A DNA stretch of 63,880 bases, counting the filler, from Basidiobolus ranarum (Eukaryota), in the NCBI GenBank assembly GCA_040143965.1. It is 55 parts of 55 records of this genome, joined end to end, with 100 filler letters (N's around TTAATTAATTAA, not from the genome) between each part and the next. Parts side by side here need not be neighbours in the genome. Positions count along the whole stretch, not along the records: positions 62,823 to 63,880 come from JASJQH010006636.1; 54 more parts are not named here. One strand, written 5' to 3'. Numbering within the stretch: position 1 is the first letter of the stretch; each line of letters opens with the position of its first letter. The position numbers were made by a program, and so were the translations under genes. Below the pieces are notes generated by a model. That model worked only from the letters and a program-made list of their open reading frames with translations, did no database searches and had not been told where the DNA came from. Positions 4,673 to 63,880 of this stretch are shown piece by piece.

Positions 4673-4970
4673 TTGGAGCATGCTCAATCCCAATACAAGA
4701 ACTCTGCTGATAAGAAAAGAAAGCCAAGCCCAAATCTCAAGCTGGGAGATTATATTTGGCTACTCTAGTAATTGATTACAAAAGACTAGGGCCTCTTAAG
4801 ATTAATTAGCAAATCAATTCCATAGCCTTCTGCCTTGAATTCCCAGCCCATTTCAAAGTCCACAATGTATTCCATGTGTCTCTCCCAGAGCCACATGCTA
4901 GAAACACCATCCAGGGTCAATCTTTTCACCCTTCCCCAGGAATCCAAGTGGAAAAACATTTTGAATATGT
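4673..4970 (+). mobile_element. Gypsy/chromovirus integrase C-terminal fragment
   Basis: DYKRLGPLK...[11 protein letters not shown]; homologous to ~35500-35710. Confidence 0.8.
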
Positions 4971-4974
4971 TTAG

Positions 4975-5210
4975 CAATTCTTCCACTATTAGTTTGCTGG
5001 TAGAGCACATTGATGTTGTTGAGTTATCTCTAATAAGTCAAGTATGTGGATATGTAGAGACCAACCACAATGAGATTCTTGTATTTTTTGATTCTCATTA
5101 TGGCTGGAATACAAAGGCTAAAAGATCTGAATAAAGGCATGCATATTAGTTTGAATTCCTACCACAGTAAACCCAGTTATTTGCCATTTGAAAACTAGAT
5201 TTTTGCAAAA
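4975..5210 (+). mobile_element. CACTA transposase probable C-terminus and 3' flank
   Basis: Reverse complement of ~50955-51135, which runs into the CCC terminus; frame ends ...FFDSHYGWNTKAKRSE* at 5134. Confidence 0.65.
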
Positions 5211-5740
5211 AAATCCAATACTTCCAGTCTTTGCATTGGAATAAACACCTAGATGCATGGATATTGATGGGAGTCCGGGCAAAATATGATGGTATCTTGA
5301 TGTTTTCAAGCATTTTCCCAATTGATTAAAACTTTGATCCTATCTTGAATGGCTCATTCATATTGATTTTTTCACTATATAGCTGAGTAAGTAGTATTGG
5401 AATGTTGTTGAATAGTAAGTGCATAGTGCCTAATGGGAAGCTCTGGCTCCAGCTGATCCTCTTTAGCAATTAAATCTTAGGCTTTTGGCTAACACTAAGT
5501 TGGAAGTTAGACTGACTATTCGGTGAATTGATATCAGTGATCATGTTTAAATTGACCAGGCTCATGATGGCAAAATTATGACCTTCAGTGTTGTATGTGG
5601 ATAATGGTAACACAAATTTGTGTTAGAGTAAACTCCATTGATTTGACTTAATCTACAGCCAGATTGTGCCTTGTGCCCTCAACAACCTCCAAGTTTACTG
5701 ATGGCAGGAGTGTCACCATTACATACAATGATATAAGCTT
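5211..5740 (-). mobile_element. CACTA transposase pseudogene fragment
   Basis: Matches the GDTPAISKLGG...SWSQSFPLGTMH...CKDWKYW region of other copies. Confidence 0.85.
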
Positions 5741-5840: not shown

Positions 5841-6907
5841 TTGCACCATCAAAATCCCTGGCAGAATGCAAGCCATCAATATTGTGAAGGTTCTCTGATG
5901 GTTTTGCTCTTTTGGAGGGTGGATCCAATCCGGATCAAATCAATTTTATTTTTGTTAGGGTAACATACAACATCTTGCTTTAGATTTTGTCAAATCAATG
6001 TAATTTACTCTATCAGGCATACACATTACTACTATCCAAATACCACACTACACTCCATGATTTTACCATCAAGAGCCCAGTCAGATTTCAATTCGATCAC
6101 CAATAGGAAGCCAATTTTGATTTAGATTTTGAATGCTTTTTGAATGGCATTGAAATTTTCAGATGGTAAACTGGGTGTAATGAAAATGCTTAGGAACAGC
6201 TTATAATAAACTAAAATTGCCATCCATTGTTGGAAATATCTTGTAAATCCCCGGATGACTCATCTGTGAGACCATTTCATCATCAGCTGATGATATTGAT
6301 GTGTTATACCTAAAATACCACCCTTATGTAGGAGGTGTTTTTTTTCTACAATATCCTTCTCATGCCACAAAACAAATATTTGAAGAAGCTCTGCTATTAT
6401 TGTCACAAATTCTTGTGCTATAAAAGCTGGAGGCTTCATGGAAAAAATAATTACAAGCATGGTCACTGTACAAAGCCAACAGCTGCACAAAGCATGGTGT
6501 ATAATAACAGCAATAAGTGCACTAAATTGACTTTAGTTTTGCTCAATGAGTCTACTGACAATACTTTGCCTCAGAGTTTTGGCAACACTGCCAAAAGTCA
6601 AGCTACTGTGGAGTTACCACAGCTATATGGCCAGAATGATGTAGGTAGAAATGCAACTTTGGTCAAACCAATAAGTCCAGACAACTTTGAGGACTTGCTG
6701 CTAGATGTTGACCTTAGTTATTTCAGTATCAGTGGTAGTATATCAGAAGTTGAAGAATAAGACAATGGTTTTGTTATGGACTCTTTGTTATTGGCAAACA
6801 TTAGTACACTCATAACACTTACTTTAAAGGAATCAACTTTGAATATTGAGGGGTGGAGAGTTTAATCCAATCTAAGCAACCAGGTGTTTATTGGTTTTCT
6901 TACACTT
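5841..6907. mobile_element. CACTA mosaic: terminus ending at 5960, ORF2 start (-, ATG 6150), 211-bp spacer, transposase N-terminus (+, ATG 6362)
   Basis: ...TTTTTGTTAGGG end shared with 31601 and 50746; the same divergent junction occurs at 33159/33371, 48140/48353 and 62932/63145. Confidence 0.8.
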
Positions 6908-9739: not shown

Positions 9740-10408
9740 CTACAACATATGAATGTCAATGCAACAATCTAGCAGAGCAGAATATGTGTTGGACCATTAA
9801 GCCTACACAACAACCCAAAATTGCTTAGGCACATGAAAGTAGAAATATTGTAGGAAAGTTGGCAGACCTAGAGACTCTGGATGTAGGAGCTGCCATGACT
9901 AGCTCTGAAAATGAGTGCTTTAGCATTTTGGATACTATGTGGAATCTTGCTCTAAATCATCTTGATTTGAGCTAATTGTGGAAAAACCAAAAACCAGGTG
10001 TTACTTTGATGATTCCTGACTTATTTCATGTAGCATATCTTGGGTTTTTGCAAGCAAATGGCAATTGGGCTAGTACAGGCCTATTCATCAAACATCTCAA
10101 AAATGTACGCAATTATTGACTTTGAAAAGAAAAAACAGCAGCTAAAGAAGTACTCAAGGAGCAGGAAGTTAGTAAACACAGGCAAAAAGCAAAGGAGCCA
10201 GTGAGCTCAGCCTCCACTGCCCCACTTACCAAATTCCTCACACCATTATCAAGATCTGTATTTCCAGAGGCAGATATACCGGCAGAAAAGCTTAATATTA
10301 CAATGGAACCTGGTACACCAGTTGGAAGAGTGCTAAATTTGGAAGTTTATCCAACACCTCGCATCTCTCAACAAGCCAAACCAGCTGCAAATAAAACTCA
10401 TGGCTCTC
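9740..10408 (+). mobile_element. CACTA ORF2 (unknown protein), central part, pseudogenised
   Basis: NHLDLS*LWKNQKP...FLQANGNWASTGLFIKHLKNVRNY; homologous to ~15340-15800 and 63770-63880. Confidence 0.7.
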
Positions 10409-15173: not shown

Positions 15174-16239
15174 CAATAATGCCACAATATTGCAATTAAT
15201 GCAGCATTCGGAAGCAACTAGTCAACAGTTAGAGAGTCACTCAACAATGATACAAGACCTTCAAAATGCTGTACTTGAGCTACAGCAACATGCTGCTCCC
15301 TCCATCCATTCTCATATGGGATTTCAATCAATCCCATACAATACATATGAACGTCACTGTGACAATCTAGCAGAGCAGAATATGTATTGGACCATTAAGC
15401 CTACACAACAACCCTAGATTACTTGGGAGCATGAAAGTAGAAATCTCATAGGAAAACCGGCAAACCAAAAGACTCTGAATGTTAGAGCTGCCATCACTTG
15501 CTCTGATGATGAGTGGTTTAAAATTTTGGAAACCGTGAGGAATGTTGCCCAAAATCACCTGGATTTGAGTCAATTGTGGAAAATCAAAAACCAGGCATTA
15601 CTCGGAAGGTTCTTGACTTATTTCATGTGGCTTATCCTGGGTTTTTGCAAGTAAATGGCAATTGTGCTAGTATGGGCCTATTCATGAAACATCTCAAAAA
15701 TGTATGCAATTATTGACTTGGAAAAGAAAGAAAAGCAGCTCAAGAAGTACTGAAGGAGCAGGAAGTTAGTAAGCCCAAGGGAAAAGCAAAGGAGCCAGTG
15801 AGTTTAGGCTCTAAACGCAGTGCAAGTATGCAGAAAGTTGCTTCAGAAGAAGAACATTCAACCTGACATTCAATCTGGTGTTGACCATGCAGATATCAGG
15901 GAAGAACTTAATACAGAGTGGCACAATATTACAGGGTATCTGCCCAATAGCTGGAAGAATGTTGACTCAGCAATGCTAATACAATGGTTGGCTTTGATGG
16001 AGATATAAATGCAAACTTGTGTTGGATATGAGCTAAACCTTGGGTATGAAATATTCCATAAAAATATTCAGAAGAATGTATCAAAGAAACTAGGAATATA
16101 AAGGTGACAAAGCAGCATTCAAGTGGTAAAGGTGTAAAATTTGAGTTACATTTTTTGCACATGCATTGATCCATAGCTCTCTGAGATTGTAGCCAATCAT
16201 GTGCAACTATTTTGCAAGAACGTGAAATATCAGTCACAA
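15174..16239 (+). mobile_element. CACTA ORF2 pseudogene (internally deleted near 15805) running toward the terminus
   Basis: Overlaps 63605-63880 at its 5' side and 22167-22215 at its 3' side. Confidence 0.75.
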
Positions 16240-17505: not shown

Positions 17506-18571
17506 TGATGTTTTCAAGCATTTTCCCAATTGATTCAAACTTTGATCCTATCTCAAATGGCTCATTCATATTGAATTTTCCACTATATAGCTGAGTAAGT
17601 AGTATTGGAATGTTGTCAAATAGTAAGTGCAAAGTGCCTAATGGGAAGCTCTGGCTCTAGCAGATCCCCTTTAGCAATAAAATCTTAGGCTTATGGCTAA
17701 TACCAGGTTTGATGCTAGACTGACTATTTCGTGAATTGATATCAGTGATCATACTAAAATGTGACCAGGCTCTTGATGGTAAAATCATGAAGTTTAGTGT
17801 TATATTTGGATAGTAGTAATGCGTATGCCTGTTAGAGTAAACTTCATTGATTTGACAAAATCTACAGCAAGATAGTGCATTTTGCCCACAAAAACCTCCA
17901 AGTTTACTGATGGCAGGAGTGTCACCAATACATACAATGATATTAGCTTTAATGAAATATTCACCCATCTGAACCCAATTAGATGACCATTCAATTTCCG
18001 CAATCAAAGGCTCCAAGGGACTATCTATAAGCACTGGTGATTTAGGTCCAGATATGATGGAGAGTATCAAAATATTATGACTCTTATATCATTCAGAAGG
18101 AGGAAGATTCAAGTTAATTCAAATTATTGGCCAGCAAGCCCTTCCAACGGCATATTTGTTTAGTGAGAAACCATCCAGAGCCAATGCAAATTCATGATCA
18201 TATGTGTTCTCAAAGAAACCTTGACTTTTCAGATTCTGGTAGTGATATCCATCAAGTATATTGGTAATACCATCAGGTTCATGGTGAGTACTTTGGTATT
18301 GGATCAATGATCTATATTTTGGTGATTTCATCAAAACTTTAAGATGGGGAATCAACGGTATGTAAGCCAAATGTGAATGATATTTACCTGGTTCAGTGAT
18401 TGCCAATTGTGTGCAAACAGAACATGACTTCAGGTTTTTCAGATCACTTGTGAAAGCCAAAAAACCATTTTGACACGACGGCAGTTTAATTACTGAATGA
18501 TTATAATTAATTCAATTGACAAGTGTTTTCCACTTGTACCATATCTGTGGAAAGCAATAGTTGACAATCAA
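17506..18571 (-). mobile_element. CACTA transposase pseudogene
   Basis: ALALDGFSLNKY..ACWPII, ISGPKSP, CIGDTPA motifs. Confidence 0.9.
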
Positions 18572-18671
18572 NNNNNNNNNNNNNNNNNNNNNNNNNNNNN
18601 NNNNNNNNNNNNNNNTTAATTAATTAANNNNNNNNNNNNNNNNNNNNNNNNNNNNNNNNNNNNNNNNNNNN

Positions 18672-19736
18672 ATTGCTGTATCTGCCAGAGATCTGCCAAT
18701 GTGAGTTGATGCTGTAAGAATATATTAAAAATATCAAGAAACAACTCCCAATGTTGCCAATACTTATCAGGCAGCAATCTTTGGAAAATTCCAATTGAAT
18801 ATATACAAATCCAATATTTCCAGTCTTTGCATTTGAATAAATGACTAGATGAATGGCTATTGATGGGAGTCCTGGTAAAACACGATGGTATCTTGATGCT
18901 TTCAAGCAATTTCCCAATTGATTCAAACTTTGATCCTATCTTGAATGGCTCATTCATATTGGATTTTCCACAACATAGCTGAGTAAGTAGTATTGGAATG
19001 TTGTTGAATAGTAAGTATATAGTGACTAATAGGAAGCTCTGACTCCAGCGGATTCCCTTTAGCAATATAATCTTAGGCTTAGAGCTAATACCAAGTTTGA
19101 TGTTAGACTGACTATTTGGTGAATTGAAATCAGGGATTATATTGAAATCTGACCGGGCTCTTGATGGTAAAATCATGAAGTTTAGTGTTGTATTTGGTTA
19201 GTAGTAATGCATATGCCTGTTAGAGTAAACTCCATTGATTTGACAAAGTCTACAGCAAGATAGTGCATAGTGCCCACAATAACCTCCAAGTTTACTGATG
19301 GCTGGAGTGTCACCAATACATACAATGATCTTAGCTTTAATTAAATATTCACCCATCTGAACCCCATTATATAACCATTCAAATTCTGCAATCAAAGGCT
19401 CCAAGAAGCTATCTATAAGCTCAGTGATTTAGATCTGGATATGACGGATAGTATCAGAATATTATGACTCTTATACTGCTCAGAAGGAGGAAGATTTAAG
19501 TTGATTAAAATTATTGGCCAGCTGGCCTTTCCAACAGTATACTTGTTTAGTGAGAAACCATCCAGAGCCAATGCATATGCATGATAATACATGTTCTCAA
19601 AGAAACCTTGACTTTTCATATTCAGGTAGTGATTTCCATCAAGTATATTGGTAATACCATCTGCTTTATGGTGAGTACTTTGGTATTGGATCAATGATCT
19701 ATATTTGGGTATTTCACCAAAACTTTAAGATGGGGA
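18672..19736 (-). mobile_element. CACTA transposase pseudogene
   Basis: Same Transposase_21-type motifs with frameshifts. Confidence 0.9.
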
Positions 19737-22166: not shown

Positions 22167-22343
22167 AGCCAATCATTCGCAACTATTTTGCGAGATCTTG
22201 AAATTTCACTCCTGAAACTGAAAAAATTGATTAAAATCAAATCTAACTTGACGATTTTATGACGGTAAGTAAACGGTTAATCCCAAATGGATTAAAATTG
22301 TGACGGTTTTCCTACGATAACAATCCTCAAATTTCTGTTAGGG
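22167..22343. mobile_element. CACTA terminus (ORF2 side) inserted in Copia integrase
   Basis: Ends CAAATTTCTGTTAGGG then TATG of Copia; repeated TGACG(G) subterminal motifs. Confidence 0.8.
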
Positions 22344-23772: not shown

Positions 23773-24396
23773 TCCTAAGAGAAATTTGAGGATTGTTATT
23801 GTAGGGAAACTGTCATAATTTTAATCTATTTAGGATTGACTATTTATCTACCATCATAAAATTTTCAAGTTAGATTTGATTTCAATCAATTTTTTCAGTT
23901 TCAAGAGTGAAAATTCAAGATCTCGCAAAATAGTTGCATACCATTGGCTACAATCTCAGAGAACTATGGATCAATGCATGTGCAAAAATATAACTGCAAT
24001 TATACACATTGACCACTTAATGCTAATTTGTCATCTTTGAAATCCCTAGTTCCATTGATACATTCTCCTGAATATTATTATAGAGTTCTTCATACCCAAG
24101 GTTCAGCTCATATCCAACACAAGTTTGTATCAATATCTCCATCAAAGCTCACTATTGTATTAATGTTGCTGAATCAACATTCTTCTAGCTAACTGGCAGA
24201 TACCCTACTATATTGTGCCACTCATATTTATGTTCTTCCCTGATATCTGCACAATCAACATCGGACTGAATATCAAGTTGAATGTTCTTCCTCTGAAGCC
24301 ACTTTTTGCATACTTGCACTGCATTTTCCCATCATACTTCTGAAAGTAGTTCTTATGCACTTTTTCTATTTTCATACATCCTTGTAGTGTTACACT
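23773..24396 (-). mobile_element. CACTA terminus plus ORF2 3' region
   Basis: TA|TCCTAAGAGAAATTTGAGG (decayed CCCTAACAGAAAT); homologous to 15820-16239 and 22167-22343. Confidence 0.78.
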
Positions 24397-24496: not shown

Positions 24497-25382
24497 CTTT
24501 CACCGGTGATCTGAAAAACCTGAAGTCATGTACTGTTTGCACACAATTGGCAATCACTGAATCAGGTAAATATTGTTCATATTTGGCTTACATACCGTTG
24601 ATTCCCCGTCTTAAAGTTTTGATGAAATCACCCAAATATAGATCATTGATCCAATACCAAAGTACTCACCGTAAAGCTGATGGTATTACCAATATACTTG
24701 ATGGATATCACTACCAGAATCTGAAAAGTCAAGGTTTCTTTGAGAACACATATGATCATGCATTTGCTTTGGGTCTGGAAGGTTTCTCACTATACAAATA
24801 TACCATTGGAAAGGCTTGCTGGCCAATAATTTTAATCAACTTAAATCTTCCTCCTTCTGAATGGTATAAGAGTCATAATATTTTGATACTATCCATCATA
24901 TCTGGACCTAAATCACCAGTGCTTATAGATAGCTTCTTGGAGCCTTTGATTGCGGAATTTGAACGGTTATCTAATGGGGTTCAGATGGGTGAATATTTTA
25001 TTAAAGCTAATATCATTGTATGTATTGGTGACACTCCTGCCATCACTAAACTTGGAGCTTTTGCTGGGCACAATGCCCTACCTTGCTGTAGATTTTGTCA
25101 AATTAATAGAGTTTACTCTAACAGGCTTACGCATTACAACTATCCAAATACAACACTAAATTTCATGATTTTACCATAAAGAGCCCGGTCATATTTCAAC
25201 ATGATCACTGATATCAATTCACCAAATAGTCAGTCTAACATCAAACTTGGTATTAGCCATAAGCCTAAGATTATATTGCTAAAGGGGATCAGCTGGAGCC
25301 ATAGCTTCCCATTAGGCACCATGCACTTATGATTCAGCAACATTCTGATACTACTTACTCAGCTACATGGTGGAAAATCCAA
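24497..25382 (+). mobile_element. CACTA transposase pseudogene
   Basis: 210-aa ORF with WPIILINLNLPPSE, SGPKSP, DSFLEPL, GDTPA. Confidence 0.92.
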
Positions 25383-25561
25383 TAGACTTGTTTCATTGGA
25401 CCAGGTCAGATTGTGCCGCTCAATCCAGCCTGCTAGTACACCATCTGGCGCGATCTGTCAATTACCATGGCTGGGTCCTATAACACTCGCTCGGACACTA
25501 TAAGCGACAATATGGCACTATCCCACCACACTCCGACACGATGATTTTTTTGGAGATATCG
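25383..25561. mobile_element. End of an unclassified element inserted in the transposase
   Basis: Begins TAGACTTGTTTCATT, matching inverted 10754-10768. Confidence 0.45.
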
Positions 25562-25661: not shown

Positions 25662-26725
25662 TGCTATTAGCAAACATTAGTCCACTCATTACACTTACTG
25701 TAAAGGAAGCAGCTTTGATTATTAAGAAGTGGAGAGTTCAATCCAATCCTAGCAACCAGGTGTTTATTAGTTTTCTTACACTCTTACCACAGTTGATTGG
25801 CAACTGTTGCTTGCCACAGACCTGGTACAAGTGGAAAACACTTGTCAATCATATGACTTATCATCCTTCAGTAATTAAACAACCTTCATGTCCAAATGGT
25901 TGTTTGGCTTTCACTGGTGATCTGAAAAACCTGAAGTCACGTACTGTTTGAACACAATTGGCAATCACTGAATCAAGTAAATAATGTTCATATTGGGCTT
26001 ACATACCGTTGATTCCCTATGTCAAAGTTTTGATGAAATCATCCAAATATAAATTATTGATCCAATACCAAAGTACTCACCATAAAGCTAATGGTATTAC
26101 CAATGTACTTGATGGATGTCACTACCAGAATCTGAAAAGTCAAGGTTTCTTTGAGAACACATATGATCATGCATTTGTGTTGGCTCTGGATGGTGTCTCA
26201 CTAAACAAATATACTGTTGGAAAGGCTTGCTGGCCAATAATTTTAATCCACTTGAATCTTCCTTATTCTGAATGGTATAAGAGTCATAATATTTTTACAC
26301 TATCCAGCATATCTGGATCTAAATCACCAGTGCTTATAGATAGCTTCTTGGAGCCTTTGATTGCAGAATTTGAACAGTTATCAAATGGGGTTCCGATGGG
26401 TGAATATTTTATTAAAGCTAATATCATTGTATGTATTGGTGATACTGCTGCCATCAGTAAACTTGGAGGTTTTCATGGGCACAATGCACTATCTTGCTGT
26501 ATATTTTGTCAAATCAATGGAGTTTACTCTAACAGGCATATGCATTACTACTATTCAAGTACAACACTAAGCTTGATGATTTTACTGTCAAGAGCCCAGT
26601 CAGATTTTGATATAATCACTGATATCAATTCACCAAATAGTCAGTCTAACATCAAACTTGGTATTAGCCATAAGCCTAAGATTATATCGCTAAAGGGGAT
26701 CAGCTGGAGCCAGAGCTTCCCATTA
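25662..26725 (+). mobile_element. CACTA transposase pseudogene
   Basis: CPNGC...C..C cysteine cluster followed by the catalytic-region motifs. Confidence 0.92.
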
Positions 26726-30834: not shown

Positions 30835-30858
30835 GGCACCAAGCTTGCACTCTCTGTA

Positions 30859-31276: not shown

Positions 31277-31381
31277 TATTGGGAAAATATGGGCTGTTTG
31301 GAGGAACTTTAGAAAAGTGGAGTTGTGAATAGCTTTGTGAGATAATTATTTATTGACCAGAAATTAAGCATTTATACATTT
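31277..31381 (-). mobile_element. Copia LTR-B 3' end inserted in gag-A
   Basis: TATTGGGAAAATATGGG, as at 57742. Confidence 0.8.
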
Positions 31382-31481: not shown

Positions 31482-31887
31482 TCACATCATCAAAATCCCT
31501 GGCAGAATGCAAGCCAACAATATTGTGACGGTTCTCTGACGGTTTTGCTATTTTGGAGGGTGGATCCGATCCGGATCAAATCAATTTTATTTTTGTTAGG
31601 GTAAAGAGACTAGGAATTTTGAAGATGATAAATCAGCATTCAAGTGGTAATTGTGTAAATTTGAGTTACAATTTTTGCACATGTGTTGATCAAAAGTTCT
31701 CTAAGATTGTAGCCAATCATGCACAACTATTTTGCAAGATCTTGAAATATCACTCCTGAAACTGAAAAAATTGATTAAAATTAAATCTAACTTAATGATT
31801 TTATGATGGTAAGTAAGCAGTCAATCCCATATGGATTAAAATTGTCATGGTTTTCCTACAATAACAATCATCAAATTTCTGTCAGGG
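31482..31887. mobile_element. Two CACTA termini in tandem (transposase-side end at 31601 inserted near an ORF2-side end at 31887)
   Basis: ...TTTTTGTTAGGG and ...TTTCTGTCAGGG. Confidence 0.8.
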
Positions 31888-32644: not shown

Positions 32645-33707
32645 CTCTCTAACTGTAGACTAGTTGCTTCCAAATGCTACATTAATTGCAATATTGTGGC
32701 ATTATTACTTGTTGTGGCCTGTATAGCAACTTCATGGTTTTTGCTTTTGATTGCATACAAATCATTATAGTGTTCTGCCTGTGATTCCCTTGTTGTAATA
32801 ATTCTATCCAAATATTCTAAGGAGGATTGTTCAATAGTGTGCAAAGTAGCCATTTTGCTAGTTGATAATCTTGATGATATTTTGGTTGAACTTTGCTCAA
32901 TATTGATTTGCTACGTAATTGGGGGATTACAATCTCTTCACTTGCACTATTGCTGTCAATGGGCAAATATAGTAAATTGATCAATGCTTCAGCATTACTT
33001 GAGTTAGTTTCCTCTTGTTAATGCCTTCCAAAGTAGATAGTGGATTACTAGACTGCTCATGAATTAGGTCCTCTGTTCTTGCTGGTTTTTTCCTTTTGTG
33101 CCAGCGGCTTTGGCTTGGAAGCTGATTTTGATTGAGATTTTGATGTTTTTGAATGGCATTGTAATTTTCAGATGGTAAACTTGGTGTAATGAGATTACTT
33201 AGAAACAGCTCATAATAAACCAAAATTGCCCTCCATTAACAGAAATATCCTGTAAATCCCCTTATGACTCATCTGTGCCACTGTCTCAGAATCAGCTGAT
33301 GATATTGATTGCTATACCTAAAAGATCACCCTAATGTAGGAGTTGTTCTTTTTTCTACAATATCCTTCTCATGCCACCACAAAAATCTTTAAAGAAGCCC
33401 TGCTATCATTGTCACCAATTCTTGTGCTATAAAAGCCAGAGGCTTCATAGAAAAAATGATCACAAACACAGTCACTGTACAAAGCCACCAGCTATGCAAA
33501 GCCTGGTGTATAACAACAGTAATAAGTGCACTAAATCAACTTTAGTTTGGCCCATTGAGTCCACTGACTGTACTTTGCCTCAAAGTTTTGTTAACACTGC
33601 CAAAAGTCAAGATACCATGGAGTCACCACAGTTATATGACCAGAATGATATAGGTTGAAATGCAACTTTGGTAGAACCAGTAAGTCCAGACAGCTTTGAG
33701 GACTTGC
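32645..33707. mobile_element. CACTA centre: ORF2 (-, ATG 33159) and transposase (+, ATG 33371) head-to-head
   Basis: Both frames match other copies; 211-bp spacer. Confidence 0.82.
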
Positions 33708-43009: not shown

Positions 43010-43109
43010 NNNNNNNNNNNNNNNNNNNNNNNNNNNNNNNNNNNNNNNNNNNNTTAATTAATTAANNNNNNNNNNNNNNNNNNNNNNNNNNNNNNNNNNN
43101 NNNNNNNNN

Positions 43110-43215
43110 CTATATAAGTCACCATATACTCTTAAGAATAAACTAACTAAAACACACTATCATAAGTTGCTTCTAATACTCAAAGTCTACCCCATTATGT
43201 CAAGATCCTCCAACA
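43110..43215 (+). mobile_element. Copia LTR-C 3' end inserted in transposase
   Basis: Matches ~29261-29368, ends CCTCCAACA. Confidence 0.75.
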
Positions 43216-47753: not shown

Positions 47754-48814
47754 CCTGCGATTCCCTTGTTGTGATAATTCTATCCAAATTTTGCATGGAG
47801 GATTGTTCCATAGTGGGCAAATCAGCCATTTTTGAAGTTGATGGTTTAGACGGTGTTTTGGCTGAACTTTGCTCAACTATTGATTTACTACATAGTTGGG
47901 GGATTACAATCTCTTCTTTTGCATCATTGCTGGAAAGGAACACATCTGGTAAATTGATTAATGCTTCATCATTACATGAGTTAGGTTCCGGAATGTTAAT
48001 GCCTTCCAAAGTGGATAGTGGATTGCTAGACTGCTAATCAATTAGGTTGTCTGTTCTTGCTGGTTTTTTCCTCTTGTGCCAGCAAGCTTTGGCTTGGAAG
48101 CCAATTTTGACTTATATTTTGAGCACTTTTTGAATGGCATTGAAATTTCCAGATGGTAGACTTGGTTTAATGAAATTGCTTAGAAACAGCTTATAATAAA
48201 CCAAAATTGACATCCATTACCAGAAATATGTTGTAAATTCCCTGATGGCTCATCTGTGACACCATCTCAGAATCAGCCAATGATACTAATGGGCTATACC
48301 TAAAATACCACCCTTAAGTGGGAGGTGTTCTTTTTTCCACAATATCCTTCTCATGCTGCAACAGAAACATTTAAAGAAGCCCTGCTATTATTGTCACAAA
48401 TTCTTGTGCTATGAAAGCTGGAGGCTTCATAGAAAAAATAATCACAAGCACTATCACTGTACAAAGCCTGATGTATAACTATATTTATAAGTACACTAAA
48501 TTTACTTCAATTTTGCCTATTGAGTCCACTGACTGTAGTTTGCCTCAAAGTTTTGGTAACACTGCCAAAAGTCAAGATACCGTGGAGTTACCACAGTTAT
48601 ATGACCAGAATGATGTAGGTCAAAATGCAACTTTGGTCAAACCAGTAAGTCCTGACAACTTTGAGGAATTGCTGCTAGATGTTGACCTTGGTTATTCCAG
48701 TACCAATGGTAGTATATCAGAAGTTGAAGAAGAAGACAACGGTTTTGTTACAGACTCTTTGTTATTGGCAAATATTAGTCCACTCATAACACTTACAGTA
48801 AAGGAAGCAGCTTA
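47754..48814. mobile_element. CACTA centre: ORF2 (-, ATG 48140) and transposase (+, ATG 48353)
   Basis: Third copy of the divergent junction; 212-bp spacer. Confidence 0.82.
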
Positions 48815-50745: not shown

Positions 50746-51135
50746 CCCTAACAAAAATAAAATTGATTTGATCCGGATAGGATCTACCCTCTGAAATAGC
50801 AAAACCATCAGAGCACTGACACAATATTGTTGGCTTGCACTGTGCCAGGGATTTTGATCATGTGAAGGTGGTTTCTTGACGGTATCTTAGTGGTCTTCAT
50901 ACATGTTAAAATAATGATCCTCAAATTTAGCATGCGTTATTCAATATCCAGCAATTTTTGCAAAAATATAACTTTCAAATGGCAAATTACTGGATTTACT
51001 GCTGTAGGAATTCAAATTAATATTCATGCCTTTATTTAGATATTTTAGGCTTTGTATTCAAGCCATAATGAGAATCAAAAAATACAAGAATCTTGTTGTG
51101 TTTAGTCTCTACATATGCACATATTTGACTGATTA
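50746..51135 (-). mobile_element. CACTA transposase-side terminus
   Basis: TA|CCCTAACAAAAATAAAATTG; continues into the reverse complement of ~5030-5210. Confidence 0.82.
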
Positions 51136-51236
51136 NNNNNNNNNNNNNNNNNNNNNNNNNNNNNNNNNNNNNNNNNNNNTTAATTAATTAANNNNNNNNN
51201 NNNNNNNNNNNNNNNNNNNNNNNNNNNNNNNNNNNT

Positions 51237-51800
51237 GCGGAAACTATTGAAGACATGGCATCAGACTACCTCGATCAGATTCGTAGTATCCAACCAAAAG
51301 GTCCCTACTACCTGCTAGGATGGTCATTCGGTGGCAGTGTTGCTCATAGCATTGCAATATTACTTCAGCAACAAAACGAAATAGTAGCACTTTTAGCTCT
51401 AATCGATAGTACTTTAAGCTATTCCCACCAATGTAATCAATTGAGTAGGTATGTAAAACTTCCACGCTACAGTGTTAATGATCATTCAGACTCGGGTGAA
51501 CAATTATGGAAAAAAGTCCGTGGTGTAGTTGAAAACAACTTCAAGGTGGCAAAGAAGCATTCTCCGAGGATTTATTATGGTAATGTGCTCTTCTTTAGAG
51601 CAACAGTGCCGGAAGAAGAAGACCAACTCCTTATTACTCCTGACATGCTAAAACCTTTCATTGTTGGAGTCATAGATACTCGACACATCCATTGCAAACA
51701 TAGTGATATGGATAAGCCTGCACCCATTGCTGATATTGGACGTACTCTGGCTAAGAGATTAGAACCAGAATCCTTGGCATACCTTAAATCTCGATATTAA
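51237..51800 (+). CDS. Terminal thioesterase domain of an NRPS (3' end of gene)
   Basis: IEDMASDYLDQIRSIQPKGPYYLLGWSFGG (GxSxG), LALID, terminal H..M motif. Confidence 0.9.
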   Translation, partial: AETIEDMASDYLDQIRSIQPKGPYYLLGWSFGGSVAHSIAILLQQQNEIVALLALIDSTLSYSHQCNQLSRYVKLPRYSVNDHSDSGEQLWKKVRGVVENNFKVAKKHSPRIYYGNVLFFRATVPEEEDQLLITPDMLKPFIVGVIDTRHIHCKHSDMDKPAPIADIGRTLAKRLEPESLAYLKSRY

Positions 51801-52394: not shown

Positions 52395-53370
52395 TTCAAT
52401 ATCTCTTCCCCAATTTGCATCTGAATATCCCATCAGATCAAAATTTGATCCAGAATATGCATATTTTAAGCACAGATCCACAGTACCTTTCAAATATCTG
52501 AAAATCCACTTAACTGCTATGATTTGATCATATCTATAATTTTGAAGATATTGGCACGTAACTCTCACAGAATGTGCAATATCTGGCCTTGTTCCAACCA
52601 TTATATACATCAAACTACCAACCATAGATTGGTAAGGAAATTTCTGGCTTTCATTTGAATCAAAGAACGGCTGATTTGAGCCATTTTTGGTCAGGTTAAG
52701 ATTTGTCTCCATTGGGGTAGATACTAGATTACATTCTTCCATTTTAAACTTCTGTAGTATATCTAGGATATACTTAGACTGGTGTAAAGTTATTGTTTTG
52801 GTAGCTCTATATATCATAACTTGGATTCCAAGATAGTACGTCAGTTCACCAAGATCAGTCATTTTGAAGTAGATAAGCTGGATTTGGTTTTCTCCAATGT
52901 CCTCAAGTCATTGGTTGCTATAATAAGGTCATCCACATATAAGGTTAATAAAACTAGGTTTGTCTTATCTGGCCTGAAGTAGATACTATAGTCAGCATTA
53001 CTCTTTTGGAATTTGAGTGTTTCTAAAAAAGCATCTATCTTGCTGTTCCAAGCTCTTGGAGATTGTTTTAAGCCAAAGAGTGTTTTCTGGAGTCTGGAAA
53101 CTTTTTTAGGGTTTTCTGGGTCCACAAATAGATCTGGCTGGTCCATATAGATCTCCTCAGCAAGCTCACCATTCAAAAAAGCTGTTTTAACTTCATTTTG
53201 AGGTATAATAAACTGATATTGAGCTGAAATTGCTAAAATCAATCTGATTGAATTAGACTTTGCTACAGGAGCAAAAGTTTTTGTGTAATTTATTCTGGTG
53301 TTTGGGAATAGCCTTTGGCCACTAGTCCTGCCTTGTACCTTTCTATATCACCATCTGAGTTGTATTTAAC
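52395..53370 (-). mobile_element. Copia reverse transcriptase
   Basis: TAFLNG, GLKQSPRAW, LYVDD, MTDLG, TRPDI, YSDANW. Confidence 0.94.
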
Positions 53371-53904
53371 ATCACGTATCCTTGAGTCGGCTGCCGAATT
53401 TACAGAAGGTGTCGCTTAGTTTTTGCCGAAATATTACTGAATATCAAGCAAAGNNNNNNNNNNNNNNNNNNNNNNNNNNNNNNNNNNNNNNNNNNNNTTA
53501 ATTAATTAANNNNNNNNNNNNNNNNNNNNNNNNNNNNNNNNNNNNNNNNNNNNTACGAATTAACCAATAAGAGCTTTAAATATAAGCTAGAGAAAACGAC
53601 CAACTACAACAAGGTTTTTGTTGTACCAGAGGATATACAAGTTTTGAAATAATGAAGTGCTTGACCATCTTGACCTAGATGTTTATTTACTTTAGAAGTT
53701 CACAAAATATCGAAACTGATCCAAATCGTTCAAGTTGGATTGTACATGAATTATTTTACCTAGTTACCAGAAAAAAAATCATAGTGTTAGTGGAAATTAG
53801 ATTATTTGACAAATTCGGGTGATTTAGAGCATAAACGCGTACTTCACGCTTATTTCAAAGTTAACCATTGATAATTCCTTCTACATTTATTTTATTTCTT
53901 TGAA

Positions 53905-55871: not shown

Positions 55872-56930
55872 GGCCTATAATCTCCAAGCATTGTGAAAGA
55901 TGCAGCAGGGAATGTATTGAATACCGGCATAGATTCAGTCTATCTTCTTTAAACCTGTAATAAAGTTTTTCATATCCAATTAAAAAAATATTTGCACAGT
56001 TCCTGTATCTGCCTGAGATCTGCCAATGTGAGTTGATGCCATAAGAATATATTAACAACATTGACAAACAACTCCCAATGTTGCCAATACTTATCAGGCA
56101 GATATCTTTTCAAAAGTCCCCTTGAATATATACAAATCCAATACTTCCAGGCTTTGCATTTGAATAAATGCCTAGATGAGTGGATATTGATGAGAGTCCT
56201 GGTAAATTATGATGGTATCTTGATGTTTTCAAGCATTTTCCTAATTGATTGAAACTTTGATCCTATCTCAAATGGCTCATTCATATTGAATTTTCTACTA
56301 TATAGCTGAGTAAGTAGCATTGGAATGTTGTTGAATAGTAAGTGCATGGTGCCTAATGGGAAGCTCTGGCTCCAGCTGATCCCATTTAGCAATTGATCTT
56401 AGGCTTACTGCTAATACCAAGTTTGATGTTAGACTGACTATTTGGTGACTTGATATCAGTGATCATGTTGAAATCTGACCAAGCTCTTGATAGTAAAATC
56501 ATGAAGTTTAGTGTTGTATTTGGATAGTAGTAATGTGTATGCCTGTTAGAGTAAACTCCATTGATTTGACAAAATCTGCAGCAAGATAGTGCATTGTGCC
56601 TGTGAAAACCTCCAAGTTTACTGATGGCTGGAGTGTGACCAATAAACACAATGATATTAGCTTTAATAAAATATTCACCTGTCTGAACCCCATAAGATAA
56701 CCATTCAAATTCCACAATCAAAGGCTCCAAGAAGCTATCTATAAGCACTGGTGATTTAGATCCAGATATGATGGATGGTATCAAAATATTATGACTCTTA
56801 CATTGTTCAGAAGGTGGATGATTTAAGTTGATTAAAATTATTGGCCAGCAAGCCTTTCCAACGGTATATTTGTTTAGTGAGAAACCATCCAGAGCCAATG
56901 CAAATGCATGATCATACATGTTCTCAAAGA
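55872..56930 (-). mobile_element. CACTA transposase pseudogene
   Basis: Catalytic region through LCRYSIHSLLHL. Confidence 0.9.
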
Positions 56931-57030
56931 NNNNNNNNNNNNNNNNNNNNNNNNNNNNNNNNNNNNNNNNNNNNTTAATTAATTAANNNNNNNNNNNNNN
57001 NNNNNNNNNNNNNNNNNNNNNNNNNNNNNN

Positions 57031-57741
57031 GTATTTGGATAGTAGTAATGCATATGCCTGTTAGAGTAAACTCCATTGATTTGACAAAATCTACAGCAAG
57101 ATTGTGCATTGTGCCTGCAAATACCTCCAAGTTTACTAATGGCAGGAGTGTCACCAATACATACAATGATATTAGCTTTAATAAACTATTCACCCATCTG
57201 AACCCCATTAGATAACTGTTCAAATTCTGCAATCAAAAGCTCCAAGAAGTAATCTATAAGCACTGGTGATTTAGGTCCAGATATGATGGATAGTATCAAA
57301 ATATTAGACTCATCTATTGTTCAGAAGGAGGAAGATTTAAGTTAATTAAAATTATTGGCCAGCAAGCCTTTCCAATGGTATATTTGTTTAGTGAGAGACC
57401 ATCCAGAGCCAATGCAAATGCATGATCATATGTGTTCTCAAAGAAACCTTGACTTTCAGATTCTGGTAGTGATATCCATCAAGTATATTGTTAATACCAT
57501 CAGCTTTACAGTGAGTACTTTGGTATTAGATCAATGATCTATATTTGGGTGATTTCATCAAAGCTTTAATCCCACACCATACATATGAATGTCACCATGA
57601 CAATCTAGCAAAGCAGAATATGTGTCGGACCATTAAGCCTACACAACAACCCAAAATTGCTTGGGCACATGGAAGTAGAAATCTCATAGGAAAAGTGCAA
57701 ACCAAAAGACTCTGAATGTCAGAGCTGCCATCACTTGCTCT
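57031..57741. mobile_element. CACTA copy lacking its centre: transposase (-) joined at ~57570 to ORF2 (+)
   Basis: Orientation fits the divergent layout with both starts and the spacer deleted. Confidence 0.78.
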
Positions 57742-58189: not shown

Positions 58190-58250
58190 GAATAACTAAA
58201 TACTGAGCTATATATGACTATATAGGTGCTTAGTCATGCTAATTTCAACA
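58190..58250 (-). mobile_element. Copia LTR-A 5' end
   Basis: ...ATGCTAATTTCAACA. Confidence 0.75.
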
Positions 58251-58457
58251 TATATAAGCTACTCAAGAATCTTGAGTTTTAGAAATAAATATCCCAATGC
58301 CATGCTTAGCGAAAGTCGAAATTACTGCCAAGTTCTAGAGTTATATCAGATATAGTGAGAAAATAATTCCAAACCTACCAAAATTCCGTATGTTTTCCCT
58401 AACTTCCATAAACACTTAAATATCATGTATAAAATATTCAACACTCATGCTGGAAAC

Positions 58458-58805
58458 TGTTAAAGTATTTTGGGAGCCTGTTGGAAGTGGTTTGGAGAAT
58501 TAGAGAAATTGGTGGTTTTCACTTATTGATTTATTGAGTAGAGAGTTGACATTTATAGTTTTGTCAAGATGTAAGCAAACTAACGTGTAGAATGTGTTAG
58601 AGAAGGTCCCAGGAGTATGTGTGCAAGGTGTGGGTCTTCTAGCACAAGTTTGAAAATATATATGTCTGAGAACTTCTAAGTTGGTGTCAATATTCTAAGT
58701 AAATTCCTCATGAGAATAATGGGAAATATCTTAGTTCAATATAGGATAACTAAATACCGAGCTATATATGACTATATAGGTGTTTAGGCAATGCTAATTT
58801 CAACA
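58458..58805 (-). repeat. Solo LTR-A (348 bp) with near-perfect 5-bp TSD
   Basis: Flanks GAAAC and TAAAC; no PBS or PPT adjacent. Confidence 0.85.
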
Positions 58806-59348
58806 TAAACATCTTGGATTTGTAACCGGACTAAAGCTATCCCCAACTCACCACTTAATCCTTCAGTACTTTGGCAAGACAATTCGGTGATAGTTTTGTC
58901 ACATTGTTAACAAATGTAAAAATTCTTATTAATTCAATACACGCAAACCACATTTGTTTGTTAGTTAATCAAAGTATTGTCAATTTATCCAAAGTACTCA
59001 CGATACCTTGGACTAGTGCCTTTATATTTATGAAAGAATACCATTCTTGCAGTGTTGAATTCTAAGAGTTCATAGTTACATTTCAAGTATATCCATTGTT
59101 CAAAAATGAGTCTTATGATTCTTACGACTACCGGTAACAAGTTGTTCGATCTCAGAAATTTCCTGAATGATAAAGTAGATTACAAGTAGGAGATATCAGA
59201 AAATTTCATTGTTGTCTCCACCTAGAAAAGTTATCCTGATTTCAACTTNNNNNNNNNNNNNNNNNNNNNNNNNNNNNNNNNNNNNNNNNNNNTTAATTAA
59301 TTAANNNNNNNNNNNNNNNNNNNNNNNNNNNNNNNNNNNNNNNNNNNN

Positions 59349-60406
59349 TCATCCCATTTGCTTGTGGATGATAAGCTGTGGTGTGTGCAATATGTATGCA
59401 ATACTTCAAGCAGAGGTCCTGGATCAGCTGTGACATCATCTCTCCTTGGTCAGCAGTGAGTTGTCCTATAGTTCCGTATTGGCAAATAATATTTTCAAAG
59501 ATGAACTTCCAATCTGTTTCTGCTTTGTTGTAGGTGGAGCTCTGGCTTCCACCCAACCACTAAGGTCATCTCTGGCAACAACAAGATATTTTTTGTTGCC
59601 AGCTGTGGGCATATGAACAAGATCAATTCCCACCTTCTGCCATAGTGTTGGTACATAGGTGGGATAAAGTGGTTCCTCATATCTTTTGGTTGATCTCCTT
59701 TGGCATGCATCACATGTCTCCACATATGATTTGATATCCTGATATTGATTGGTCCAATAGTATCTTAGTGTTGAGTTCTTGAAAGTAGCCTCTCTGCCAC
59801 AATGTCCTCCTGGCTCTCCTTCATGGATCTCTTTAATGATCCTCTGCTTTTCTTTAGAATCAAAGATGACTCTTCTTGGTACTTGTCCTGCCTTAACCCG
59901 CTTGAAAAGTAGTCCATCCCTTACAAGAAAGTGATGGGCTTTCCTCCTGAGATTTCTGAATTGCTGGGGATCTAAGGTGTAGGGTCTCTGTAATGTAGTC
60001 AAATAATGGATAATATCTCTCCATTCTTCAGGTATAGGGGTACTGATAGAAACTTGGTGTATGTTGGTATCAAGGGAGTCTTCAAAGTTGTCATCAAAGT
60101 GTATTTCACCAGGTCTTGGTCCCATTCTTGATAGTCCATCTGCAACAACATTTGTTTTTCCTGGTATGTGTACTACCTCAAAGTCAAACATCTTGGCCAA
60201 GCCATCCACCGGTTGGTAGCATCATCTGGTAGGTCTAGTTTGTTGATCATCCCGATAATTGGTCTTGCATCTGTTTCAAGTATGAAGTGATTGAAATAGA
60301 GTTGGGCCTTTAGTTTCTTGATCATCTTTACAGCTCCAAGTAGTTCTCTCTTGATCTGGGAATATCTCTGCTCCCTAGGGTTGAATAAGCAGCTTTCATA
60401 TCTGCA
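59349..60406 (-). mobile_element. Gypsy RNase H and integrase
   Basis: HIPGKTNVVADGLSR, H..GH..YYW..CDAC, GIDLVHM, AYHPQANG; RNase H before integrase. Confidence 0.92.
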
Positions 60407-61239
60407 NNNNNNNNNNNNNNNNNNNNNNNNNNNNNNNNNNNNNNNNNNNNTTAATTAATTAANNNNNNNNNNNNNNNNNNNNNNNNNNNNNNNNNNNNNN
60501 NNNNNNGATATTTCATAAAATCAATGGGACGATCGCAAAAAATTGGAGATAAGCTCAGACACCTGGCAAAAGAAACTTACTCTGTATCAAATGTTTAGTG
60601 TTGCGATTACAACACAGGATTATTTGCTTTTTTCGTTGGTCGATTGCTGCTAGCTGACGAGATACCCTTTCTTTTATACCCGGTGGTGGAGAGAGGTTCC
60701 TTCAATCTGCAAAAACGTACACTATAAGTTAGCACATATGCAAGATGCCAATGAATTCAGCTACTGGGAAACGTTGGTGCTAGTGCTCTGCTTGATTCTT
60801 GCACAAATATATCAGTCATCGTCTACAACAATGAAGAACGTAAATGTATTCTTGGTACTATTTTGTATCTTATTTCCAATATGCGAGCCAAGGGCATAAA
60901 GATCTATCGATTATTCATCATCTTCAATAGTATTCAGAAACCAGGATGAATGTCTCAGTTTGCAAGTGTCTCCATTAGTTAATGGAAATTCGTAATCAAA
61001 TGCTAGATGAATAGTTAAGCAAATTTGGGTATTTGGCTACCGATCACATTTGAATTCCGATTGGCTAGTCTCAGCTCCCTGGTGAAAAGCAGGAAGAATA
61101 CACCATATATAGAAGATTTAAGCGATTTATAGTTATGACAAATTTATCCATGAAAAGTAGTATATTAATGGTGGGTACAATGGGGTTAGATCATCAGTTT
61201 CATTCATTTAACATTATCATTCTTGTATAGTTGACAAAA

Positions 61240-61564
61240 ATGGCTACTCGACATATCACAAAGGCCGTTTTATCTATTGCGAAAGCGGAAGGTGTAGGCG
61301 CGACTGTACGTAGAAGCATAGGAACCAGCGCACTACGAAACTTTGATCCCTTTTTAATGCTCGACGAGTTCATGGTCGAACCACCTGCTGGCTTCCCAGA
61401 CCATCCACATCGTGGCTTCGAAACTGTGACTTACATGCTAGATGGAATTATCACTCACGAAGATTTTGTAGGTCATAAAGGCGAGATTGGCCCCGGTGAC
61501 CTCCAATGGATGACTGCTGGTCGCGGGATTGTTCATGCCGAAATGCCCAAAACCAAATGTCATG
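61240..61564 (+). CDS. Pirin (cupin), N-terminal part
   Basis: EGVGATVRRSIG, DPFLMLDEF, GFPDHPHRGFETVTY, QWMTAGRGIVHAE. Confidence 0.96.
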
Positions 61565-61664: not shown

Positions 61665-62640
61665 TCCAGGGATATGGATTTCCACTGCTGTTCAGTAATT
61701 GGAAGAGGCTGTAGGAGGCCATAGGGCCAATGTCTTGGAGTCATCACTTGAGCACAAGTATCACAGGTCAAAATATAAGTCTTGACAAATGCAAACATTT
61801 TGGGCCACCAATATTCCCTGAATGCCAACATATACAAATGAGCAACACCAAAGTGTCCTGCTGGTGGTGAGTCATGTCTTTCCTGCATGATTTTGAGTCT
61901 GGAAGTGTGGTCTTCAATGCAAAGTTGCTTCCTATAAAACAAGATTTCATTGATGATAGAGAAATGGTGGTACAGGTTCAAGCTTGAGAGGTCTTTGGCT
62001 GCTTCCTGGGCTTTCTTGATTGATATTACCAATGGGTCTTTGGATTGAAATTTGCAAATATTTTCATGGAGTGTGTTTGATCTAGGCAGAGAAAGGGCAG
62101 TTGCACTAATTTGAAGTTGTTAGGGCTTCAGTAAGGAAGTATTTTGCTGGCCAAAGGGCTCATCCCCTTCTTTAGGCTAATATTCTGCTCTACGTGATAA
62201 GGCATCAGGCTTTCCTTGCTGGCTACCTGGTCAATATGTGATCACAAAGTCAAAACTGGCAAGAAATAATGACCATCTTGCTTGATGATGGTTGAGAACT
62301 TTGGTTGTACTAAAATACTGAAGATTCTTGTGAACACAATAAACTGTGATTTTATGATTTGCTCCATCCAAGTATTGTTGCCATTGTTCAAATGCAGGAA
62401 TAATTGCTAATAGTTCCTTGTCATAGTTGATTTCTGTGGCAGAGAACTTTCTTGAGTAAAAGGCAACAAGGTGTAGTAAGTTGTCATCATCAAGCTGTGA
62501 TAATACTGCTCCTAGAGCAAGGTTGGATGCATCAGTTTCAACAATAAATTACTTGTCTAGCGTGGAATGTTCCAGGATTGGTGCTGAGGTAAAAGCACCC
62601 TTTAAAGTTACAAATGCTTGTTGGCAAGATGGGTTCTGAT
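61665..62640 (-). mobile_element. Gypsy RNase H and integrase zinc-finger fragment
   Basis: ETDASN, AFYSRKF, KPDALSR, HDSPPAGHFG, CDTC, GLLQPLP. Confidence 0.9.
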
Positions 62641-62822
62641 GGACTGATGTTATATCCACGGAATTCAACTTGAGCTTGATCAAATTCACATTTGTCAAGT
62701 TTAGCATAGAGCCCAGAGGTTTNNNNNNNNNNNNNNNNNNNNNNNNNNNNNNNNNNNNNNNNNNNNTTAATTAATTAANNNNNNNNNNNNNNNNNNNNNN
62801 NNNNNNNNNNNNNNNNNNNNNN

Positions 62823-63880
62823 TACAGTTTACCATGCTGGTCATTATTTCTTCTATGAAGCCTCTGGCTTTCATAGCACAAGAATTTGTGACAATAATAG
62901 CAGGGCTTCTTTAAATGTTTGTGTTGCAGCATGAGAAGGATATTGTAGATAAAAAAACACCTCTTATGTAAGGGTGGTATTTTAGGTATAGCCCATCAAT
63001 ATCATGAGCTGATTCTGGGACAGTGTCACAGATGAGTCATCAGGGGATTTACAAGATATTTCCGGTAATAGATGGCAATTTTAATTTATTTTAAGCTGTT
63101 TCTAAGCAATTTCATTACACCAAGTTTACCATCTGAAAATTTCAATGCCATTCAAAAAGCATTAAAAATCTAAATCAAAATTGGCTTCCAAGCCAAAGCC
63201 TGCTTGTGCAAAAGGAAAAAAACCAGCAAGAATAGAAGACTTAATTGATGAGCAGTCTAGCAATCCACTATCCACTTTAGAAGGCATTAACATGCTGGAA
63301 ACTTACTCAAGTAATGATGAAGCAGTAATCAATTTACCAGATATGTTCCTTTCCCGCAATAGTGTAAGTAAAGAGATTGTGATCCCCCAATTAAGTAGTA
63401 AATAAATAGTTGAGCAAAGGTCAACCAAGACACTGTCAAGACCATCAACTTCCAAAATGGCTACTTTGCCCACTATTGAACAACCCTCCATAGAAAATTT
63501 GGATAGAACTTTTATAACCAGGGAATTGCAGGCAGAACACCACAATGATTTGTATGCAATCATAAGTAGCAAGTACAAAATTGCCATACAGGCCATGACA
63601 AGCAATAACACTGCAATATTGCAATTAATGCAGTGCTCAGAAGCAACTAGTCAGCTGTAAGAGAGTCACTCAACAATGATACCAGACCTTCCAAATGGTG
63701 TACTTGAGCTACAGCAACATGCTGCTCCCTCCATCCTTTCTCATATGGGATTTCAATCAATCCCACACCATACATATAAACATCACCGTGACAATCTAGC
63801 AGAGCAGAATATGTGTTGGACCATTAAGCCTACACAATGACCTGAAATTGCTTGGGCACATGAAAGTAGAAATCTCATAG
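62823..63880. mobile_element. CACTA centre: transposase start (-, ATG 62932) and ORF2 N-terminal half (+, ATG 63145)
   Basis: Fourth copy of the divergent junction; 212-bp spacer. Confidence 0.82.
63031..63041. promoter_or_regulatory. GATGAGTCATC palindrome (GCN4/AP-1-type bZIP site) at the centre of the divergent spacer
   Basis: Also at 6254-6264 and ~33264; one mismatch at ~48245. Confidence 0.5.

Follow-up and report, generated by a model that had tools for sequence, protein, structure and literature searches.

A CCC-ended EnSpm-clade transposon of Basidiobolus ranarum pairs its transposase with a divergent gene whose central domain apparently accompanies distant fungal relatives

The contig at positions 62823-63880 is an internal fragment of one decayed transposon copy and carries, back to back, the 5′ end of a transposase gene and the start of a second gene, which we call ORF2 (Table 1). 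This copy is dead, its ORF2 part being 83% identical to the family sequence with 4 stops in 245 codons. The window, by which we mean the whole stretch of 63,880 nucleotides of Basidiobolus ranarum DNA that was analysed, is composed of 55 separate contigs of 1,058-1,068 bases with fixed N spacers between them and forms no continuous locus; the source genome comprises 65 Mb in 13,754 contigs. CpG is depleted across the stretch (observed/expected 0.29). Mapping to the family sequence showed that a single element of the EnSpm clade accounts for 22 of the 55 contigs and 17,828 bases, close to the approximately 21 contigs counted in a preliminary description of this DNA.

Table 1. Features of the EnSpm-clade element in the window
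Feature	Position	Strand	Basis or remarks
Internal fragment of one decayed copy	62823..63880	.	element 2873-3929, 92% to family sequence
Transposase gene 5′ end, ATG at 62932	62823..62932	-	mapping, translation
212-bp spacer between start codons; presumed shared promoter region	62933..63144	.	position
ORF2 codons 1-245	63145..63880	+	4 stops; stops short of conserved domain (predicted three-helix)
Junction, second copy	6106..6907	.	ORF2 ATG 6150 (-), transposase ATG 6362 (+)
Junction, third copy	32645..33707	.	ATGs 33159 / 33371
Junction, fourth copy	47754..48813	.	ATGs 48140 / 48353
Element end, transposase 3′ side	50746..51135	+	13-bp TIR from CCC, CCGTCA-type subterminal repeats, transposase C-terminal codons
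Element end, ORF2 3′ side, GGG; sits in Copia-like retrotransposon	22167..22343	+	element mapping
ORF2 3′ end and its element end	23774..24396	-	element mapping
ORF2 middle with conserved domain, and 3′ end	15174..16235	+	~355-bp internal deletion
ORF2 fragment over conserved domain	9745..10408	+	element 3821-4484
Transposase catalytic core fragment	24497..25384	+	Pfam Transposase_21 E 9.7e-16
Transposase fragment	25662..26725	+	Pfam Transposase_21 E 2.1e-12
Two transposase-core fragments	17506..19736	-	element mapping
Other transposase-core fragments	1178-2236, 10766-11226, 41948-44170, 55872-57569		element mapping
Copy with internal deletion	4967..5740	.	4967-5211 reversed = element 210-454, adjoining 1274-1804 (5211-5740)
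Self-nested junction	31482..31887	.	copy's end near ORF2 end of second copy, whose GGG end is kept

Other contigs of the window carry different sequences. Judged by the appearance of their translations, decayed Copia-like retrotransposon fragments are found at 21002-23231, 19837-20901, 40786-41847, 8175-9241, 48915-49975 and 52395-53453, and Gypsy-like fragments with integrase- and RT-like translations at 59349-60406, 61665-62722, 34971-36033 and 4673-4981. A smaller second repeat family common to several contigs (2-397, 2337-2933, 30318-31381, 58190-58816 and 12842-13131) lies beside a gag-like frame and probably represents LTR ends. Several stretches we take to be fragments of host genes: a xanthine-dehydrogenase-like one at 3505-4519 (-) with 49% GC, a pirin-like one at 61231-61564 (+), an NRPS thioesterase-like one at 51236-51800 (+), an oxidoreductase-like one at 36134-36547 (-) and a SNF2-helicase-like one at 50490-50740 (+). 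Contig 45432-46492 has 62% GC, is rich in homopolymers and is unlike the other contigs; it is possibly low-quality or foreign sequence. A tandem repeat of approximately 125 bp with roughly four units is present at 40197-40684.

The family sequence of 5,203 bp was obtained by extending contig 62823-63880 by script through overlapping genomic copies, and this extension reached a CCC end on both sides. The ends are inverted repeats of 13 bp, CCC..GGG, with one mismatch. Exact matches in the genome number at least 365 for one end and at least 411 for the other, lower bounds that refer to 17-base patterns counted only where A or T is found twenty bases upstream; reversed-pattern controls gave 0. 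Subterminal repeats of the CCGTCA type are present, short and few in number: CCGTCA, which contains a CpG, occurs seven times in the family sequence, six of the seven no more than 135 bp from an end. The terminal inverted repeats (TIRs) enclose two ORFs, a DDE transposase on one strand and ORF2 on the other. Its transposase places the element, 5.2 kb long, among the cut-and-paste DNA transposons of the EnSpm/CACTA (CMC/CMCT) clade. It had been described as CACTA-type, which is correct for the clade but not for the ends: because these are CCC..GGG, the strict plant definition of a CACTA element does not cover it. Animals have CCC-ended EnSpm elements.

The transposase and ORF2 start codons of the four junctions in the window lie where the preliminary description had placed them, with 211 bases between 6150 and 6362 and between 33159 and 33371, and 212 bases between 48140 and 48353 and between 62932 and 63145. 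Genome-wide, 42 of the 57 distinct hits to the spacer region span both starts. The spacer measures 210-212 bases in 41 of these 42 copies (218 in the other) and both ATGs are kept in 36, so the back-to-back pairing of the two genes is not a matter of chance. Connections to the ends, also proposed earlier, agree with the mapping. ORF2 is joined to one CCC terminus, 15174-16239 corresponding to element 3652-4292 plus 4648-5071 and 22167-22343 to 5027-5203. The opposite terminus (50746-51135, element 1-390) is joined to the transposase frame at 4967-5211 (element 210-454); the overlap that was missing here is supplied by three single genomic contigs that connect this end to the transposase, L127 (element 1-2633), L133 (1-2492) and L135 (2-2794). 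Contig C8411 runs from one end across both ATGs to element 4486, and contig C8792 from the transposase core through ORF2 to the opposite end, each with one internal deletion; together with the end-to-transposase contigs, they locate ORF2 within the ends and not outside them, a layout that had been raised as an alternative. With PF02992 matches, an enclosed ORF2 and closest named ORF2 records from Basidiobolus ranarum itself, the proposed fungal EnSpm element with a bidirectional two-gene layout is borne out.

Among the genomic loci mapped, no whole copy was found on a single contig; the assembly breaks inside nearly every copy and both ends never occur on one contig, as would be the case if the pairing were an artefact of stitched short contigs or if ORF2 came from a separate nested element. 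We consider this explanation very improbable in view of the constant spacer in the spanning copies and the two contigs that bridge end, transposase and ORF2 and transposase, ORF2 and end, respectively. Furthermore, P0008, a transposase with 93% identity, is assigned by its protein record to an unrelated contig of 5,233 bp, about the size of the element, and the layout recurs in another lineage (L363, see below).

The transposase gene is located on the minus strand of the element with its start at element 2981 and encodes 878 amino acids, assuming removal of one inferred GT-AG intron of 58 nt; P0008 diverges from the transposase directly after the inferred donor site. The protein matches Pfam Transposase_21 (PF02992) with an E-value of 1.8e-16, above the curated cut-off, and the Pfam scans, which give PF02992 and DUF1258, returned no Plavaka family. 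The family translation keeps the D, D, E triad and the C(2)C, MH and H(3-4)H motifs, and D260, D344, E609, CxxC, MH and HxxxH are invariant in all five aligned relatives, in an alignment led by P0008. After P0008 the next relatives share 25-36% identity, the named ones being from Rhizoctonia and Ceratobasidium. The longest stop-free stretch seen in the transposase is 366 amino acids. At family position ~1480 the transposase, for example in P0005, P0006 and P0008, reads GTMH, as against DxMH in the four aligned relatives.

In the family sequence ORF2 runs as a single intronless open frame for about 585 codons and comprises, in this order, a basic N-terminus, a low-complexity stretch, a conserved domain of roughly 95 amino acids at approximately residues 245-340, another low-complexity stretch and a C-terminal region that is helical; weak hits to coiled-coil families make a coiled coil after the first low-complexity stretch probable. 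Natural stop-free stretches of 355, 323 and 239 amino acids were found. Variants common to several copies are synonymous in 14 of 30 cases, compared to 252 of 1370 for singletons (p 0.0005), and a +1 frame control gave 7 of 30 for the shared variants (p 0.47). The comparison shows ORF2 to have been apparently kept under purifying selection, by a test that is weak and noisy, since the transposase itself is not significant in it (12 of 45 shared variants versus 309 of 1742 singletons synonymous, p 0.17).

No Pfam family matched any of five ORF2 stretches significantly at E-values up to 5, and Transposase_23/24 (the TnpA families) and Tet_JBP gave no match with a library that detects Tet_JBP in another locus (L422, see below). 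A HMMER search with ORF2 against 1.84 billion representatives retrieved seven proteins, all unannotated or hypothetical, with no known host gene among them. Four are B. ranarum fragments, two share 38-41% identity and the last is a Tulasnella protein (P0032, E 7e-4); the closest named records are Basidiobolus ranarum hypothetical proteins with 73-90% identity. A word-index search returned nothing with one ORF2 protein and only its own inputs with a 4-row profile, and in the ESM Atlas the central domain gave only Basidiomycota clusters at 0.92-0.94 and the C-terminal domain nothing. Sister families were sought in the same genome with the diverged homologue P0028, yielding none that is distinct (best matches 30-53% identity); the same query found 0 of 121 candidates in metagenome contigs. 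One database protein, P0033, reads through ORF2 codon 334, where most copies have a CpG-derived stop. This protein of 257 amino acids, nearly identical to ORF2, comes from a 1,000-bp contig labelled Ascosphaera pollenicola, a label that reflects either contamination or horizontal transfer.

AlphaFold2 modelling of the conserved ORF2 domain from a 6-row alignment gave three main helices with a mean pLDDT of 60.8; in residues 61-110 of the piece modelled, the values are 78-85. Structure searches with this model reached a best Z of 6.3, none attaining Z 8, and Foldseek against the PDB found no hit at E 0.001. BEN, homeodomain and Myb/SANT domains are among the best-scoring folds and share that rank with unrelated helical bundles; BEND6 aligns with Z 6.1 and rmsd 2.4 over 63 residues, Bsg25A with Z 5.5. 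The model of the C-terminal part is a low-confidence helical domain (best Z 5.3) and is uninformative.

Most of the family has by now been inactivated by CpG decay and heavy self-nesting. The 321 segments compared with the family sequence have a median non-CpG divergence of 5.6% (range 0.6-24%). CpG positions are mutated in 42-48% of cases as compared to approximately 5.5% for C-to-T or G-to-A changes elsewhere, an excess that we interpret as the mark of methylation decay. The longest copies examined all have stops or gaps. Among 301 distinct ends, 94 are inserted in the element's own copies. Close to the ORF2 end, several ends share one four-base insertion site, element 4915-4918 (L119, L140, L253, L280, L300 and, in the window, 31601-31603), which is either part of an amplified composite or a hot spot.

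The target duplication appears to be 3 or 4 bp. Ends were paired through known empty sites, namely self-insertions and other repeats, and end pairs with agreeing shared bases were obtained at three sites for 4 bp and at three sites for 3 bp; one of the 3-bp cases is the product of a targeted search, and two further targeted searches for partner ends were empty. Unmatched pairs were obtained as well, at offsets of 2, 3, 5, 6, -6, -7 and -11, with bases that conflict or have no overlap. Since chance alone should yield about 0.2 self pairs at each offset, separate insertions may account for some of the pairs. A symmetry score slightly favours 4 bp (1.0, versus 0.2 for 7 and -3.4 for 3). Chapaev elements have a 4-bp target duplication. 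Four junctions in the window had suggested a TA-specific target, which was rejected with TA flanks at only 60 of 301 ends. In the insertion flanks, A/T is mildly preferred from -1 to -3 and T at -8. These preferences, and the frequency of ends inside the element, would fit an ORF2 that is the element's DNA-binding protein acting as a negative regulator or as a selector of target sites, for example into other repeats. We regard this as quite unlikely: self-nesting is expected of a very abundant repeat in short, repeat-rich contigs, 22 of 55 here, and the family reached many hundreds of copies with ORF2 intact.

Metagenome contigs were scanned with the transposase alignment, which confirmed 155 relatives. 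The best 80 of these 155, with 25-38% identity, were examined with an ORF2-domain profile of five blocks that allows introns and leaves out each locus's own family. Eight of these 80 loci (L362/363, L366/367/429, L393/397 and L386) have the ORF2 domain upstream on the opposite strand with scores of 62-90, the background elsewhere being at most 12.6. By our own grouping of the same best 80 of 155 loci, 13 distinct elements have at least 3 kb upstream, 4 with the domain head to head and 9 without it. Another locus carries the domain in three exons 5 kb downstream of the transposase and on the same strand (L378:10501-11166 (+), score 95), which is either another arrangement or a neighbouring element. 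As L378 and the nine elements that lack it upstream show, an element need not carry the domain there.

Each of the five spliced domains accommodates two GT-AG introns whose positions match between them, with a middle exon of 93-96 nt among the candidate splice solutions; the Basidiobolus ORF2 gene has no introns at those two positions. A profile built from the five spliced domains alone recovers ORF2 with E 8.6e-10 and the Tulasnella protein with 1e-14 among 8,762 targets and matches none of the transposases among these, E-values that are inflated, the metagenome domains having first been chosen with an ORF2-seeded profile. It is for this reason that the intron positions count as independent evidence. 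ORF2 is thus apparently no orphan: its domain goes along with transposases of distant fungal EnSpm elements, in most cases with unchanged orientation. The preliminary description had named a candidate for an undescribed system; the two-gene layout stands, but a one-off it does not appear to be, since an upstream, divergent ORF2 domain in other fungal EnSpm lineages points to an old design.

Of the relatives in which TIRs were sought, L358 (CCC), L360 (CACTA) and L363 have clear ones, and the low-GC loci, including L367, L386 and L397, gave only chance-like candidates. L363 has a CCC end at 3772, where the similarity to L362 starts and ~320 bases past the stop of the divergent gene, and its contig ends within the matching inverted repeat; it has 47% GC and its transposase groups with basidiomycete ones. 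Judged by its sequence, L363 repeats the Basidiobolus layout in a CCC-ended element of ~5.1 kb. L358:1711-7222 (CCC ends) and L360:778-7375 (CACTA ends) are complete-looking fungal EnSpm elements. Within their TIRs both have long divergent ORFs without the ORF2 domain, which may be other accessory genes in the same position. Elsewhere, ~1 kb downstream of a low-GC fungal Transposase_21 gene, locus L422 contains a Tet_JBP-like gene (9005-10432 (-); Pfam E 4.4e-7, short of the curated cut-off); this is possibly a TET-carrying EnSpm element outside the groups that Kojima lists.

On a quick transposase tree with long branches the carriers of the domain fall into three separate groups, the starred branches forcing three changes, which indicates either an old feature with losses or repeated capture. 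Such scatter, and the absence of the upstream domain from most of the distant elements with its downstream location in L378, are what one would expect if ORF2 were cargo of long standing, derived from a host gene for a chromatin protein or transcription factor, of indirect or no help to the element's survival and present in many fungal DNA transposons much as TET/JBP genes are; fungal transposon families pass cargo genes passively according to the available parts of PMC12730594. We nevertheless find cargo an unlikely explanation, as the four distant elements and the Basidiobolus family agree in side and orientation, ORF2 appears to be under purifying selection, and the seven homologues from the 1.84 billion representatives include no known host gene.

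The reading that we prefer, with slightly more confidence than doubt, is that ORF2 is a fungal analogue of TnpA, a separately encoded DNA-binding helper. The predicted fold and the CpG-holding CCGTCA motifs near the ends led us to this comparison with the plant protein. One short bidirectional promoter in the ~212-bp spacer would co-express transposase and ORF2, and ORF2, with its basic N-terminus, probable coiled coil and three-helix domain, would bind the CpG-containing subterminal repeats. As a counterpart of plant TnpA it could help to pair the element ends and/or protect the activity of ends and promoter from methylation, with cutting and joining left to the transposase. Against the analogy, the models of ORF2 give one three-helix domain where TnpA has two tandem tri-helical units, the second helical domain of ORF2 being modelled with low confidence. 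In a wider and more tentative proposal, a fungal EnSpm lineage that reaches across several deep groups of fungi might have split off a TnpA-like regulator of its own, independently of plants. This three-helix DNA-binding protein, head to head with the transposase and driven by one short promoter, would act on the CpG-containing end repeats as helper and anti-silencing factor, with the CCC-ended members forming a distinct CMCT branch, possibly with 4-bp or variable duplications; to this we give rather less than even credence.

If true, fungal EnSpm elements would have, in a conserved, separate and divergent helical protein, an independent second answer beside plant TnpA, and ORF2 would be a named target for studying what, in the absence of a TET enzyme, keeps the transposons of methylating fungi active. 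With a profile of its domain, a set of fungal "hypothetical proteins" could be annotated as transposon genes. The family itself is an ordinary decayed repeat; the recurrence of the domain in distant relatives hints at a helper or anti-silencing role for ORF2.

In plants, EnSpm elements with two genes are a textbook case, and maize TnpA and TnpD are made from one co-oriented transcript. Plant CACTA elements are characterized, in the available passages of PMC4158355, by two ORFs, CACTA ends and 3-bp duplications. The Basidiobolus element shares with plant En/Spm the PF02992 DDE transposase, two ORFs inside short TIRs, subterminal repeats and a separate accessory protein. It differs in its ends (CCC..GGG versus CACTA..TAGTG) and in its ORF2, which lies on the opposite strand with its own start and is without Transposase_23/24. 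Plant TnpA is described, in the accessible part of a 2026 structural survey (10.64898/2026.08.24.746577), as a tri-helical DNA-binding regulator whose domain consists of two tandem tri-helical HTH units. The same portion states, from 962 Repbase Spm proteins, that TnpA-like proteins are apparently confined to flowering plants, that in fungi and animals the tri-helical HTH domain is typically fused to the transposase, and that HTH units occur in other accessory proteins too. BEN, homeodomain and Myb/SANT proteins resemble the ORF2 domain model over ~60 residues (Z 4.6-6.1), without support from sequence.

Within the fungi, the "huge expansions of CMC-EnSpm" in Basidiobolus reported by Muszewska 2017 in a domain census (PMC5751038) concern the same host group and superfamily, and the passages available give no structure, ends or second gene. 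As to its layout, the system is undescribed within the literature searched, which covered few subscription papers and contained no description of a divergent helper in fungal EnSpm elements; the expansion of EnSpm in Basidiobolus was already published. PMC11075540 and PMC12477816, in the parts at hand, added no layout for fungal EnSpm; the term "head-to-head" is absent from the available text of PMC12730594, as is "Basidiobolus" from its supplement. That paper, in the same text, gives the CMCT clade CA..TG ends "in most cases" with 2-5 bp duplications, and rust EnSpm families CAC ends, 3-bp duplications and TET/JBP cargo, while Cryptococcus CNIRT6 and CNEST have one gene annotation each in the portion seen of 10.1101/2025.05.19.654958. 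Like these fungal EnSpm elements (PMC12730594, CNIRT6), some of which carry extra genes in the passages available, the Basidiobolus element has a fungal host and a CMC-type transposase with C(2)C and H(3-4)H; unlike those with CAC ends and rust TET/JBP cargo, it has CCC ends and an ORF2 that is not TET/JBP. ESTA and CNEST, which make TA duplications according to the parts seen of PMC12730594 and 10.1101/2025.05.19.654958, belong with Plavaka to the fungal CMCT elements as well, and the Basidiobolus element differs from them in having no TA duplication and no Plavaka Pfam match. What is new in comparison with these systems is the recurrence of the central ORF2 domain, predicted to be a three-helix fold: of the 13 distant fungal EnSpm elements with enough flank, profile matches place it upstream of the transposase and divergent from it in 4, with two introns at shared positions.
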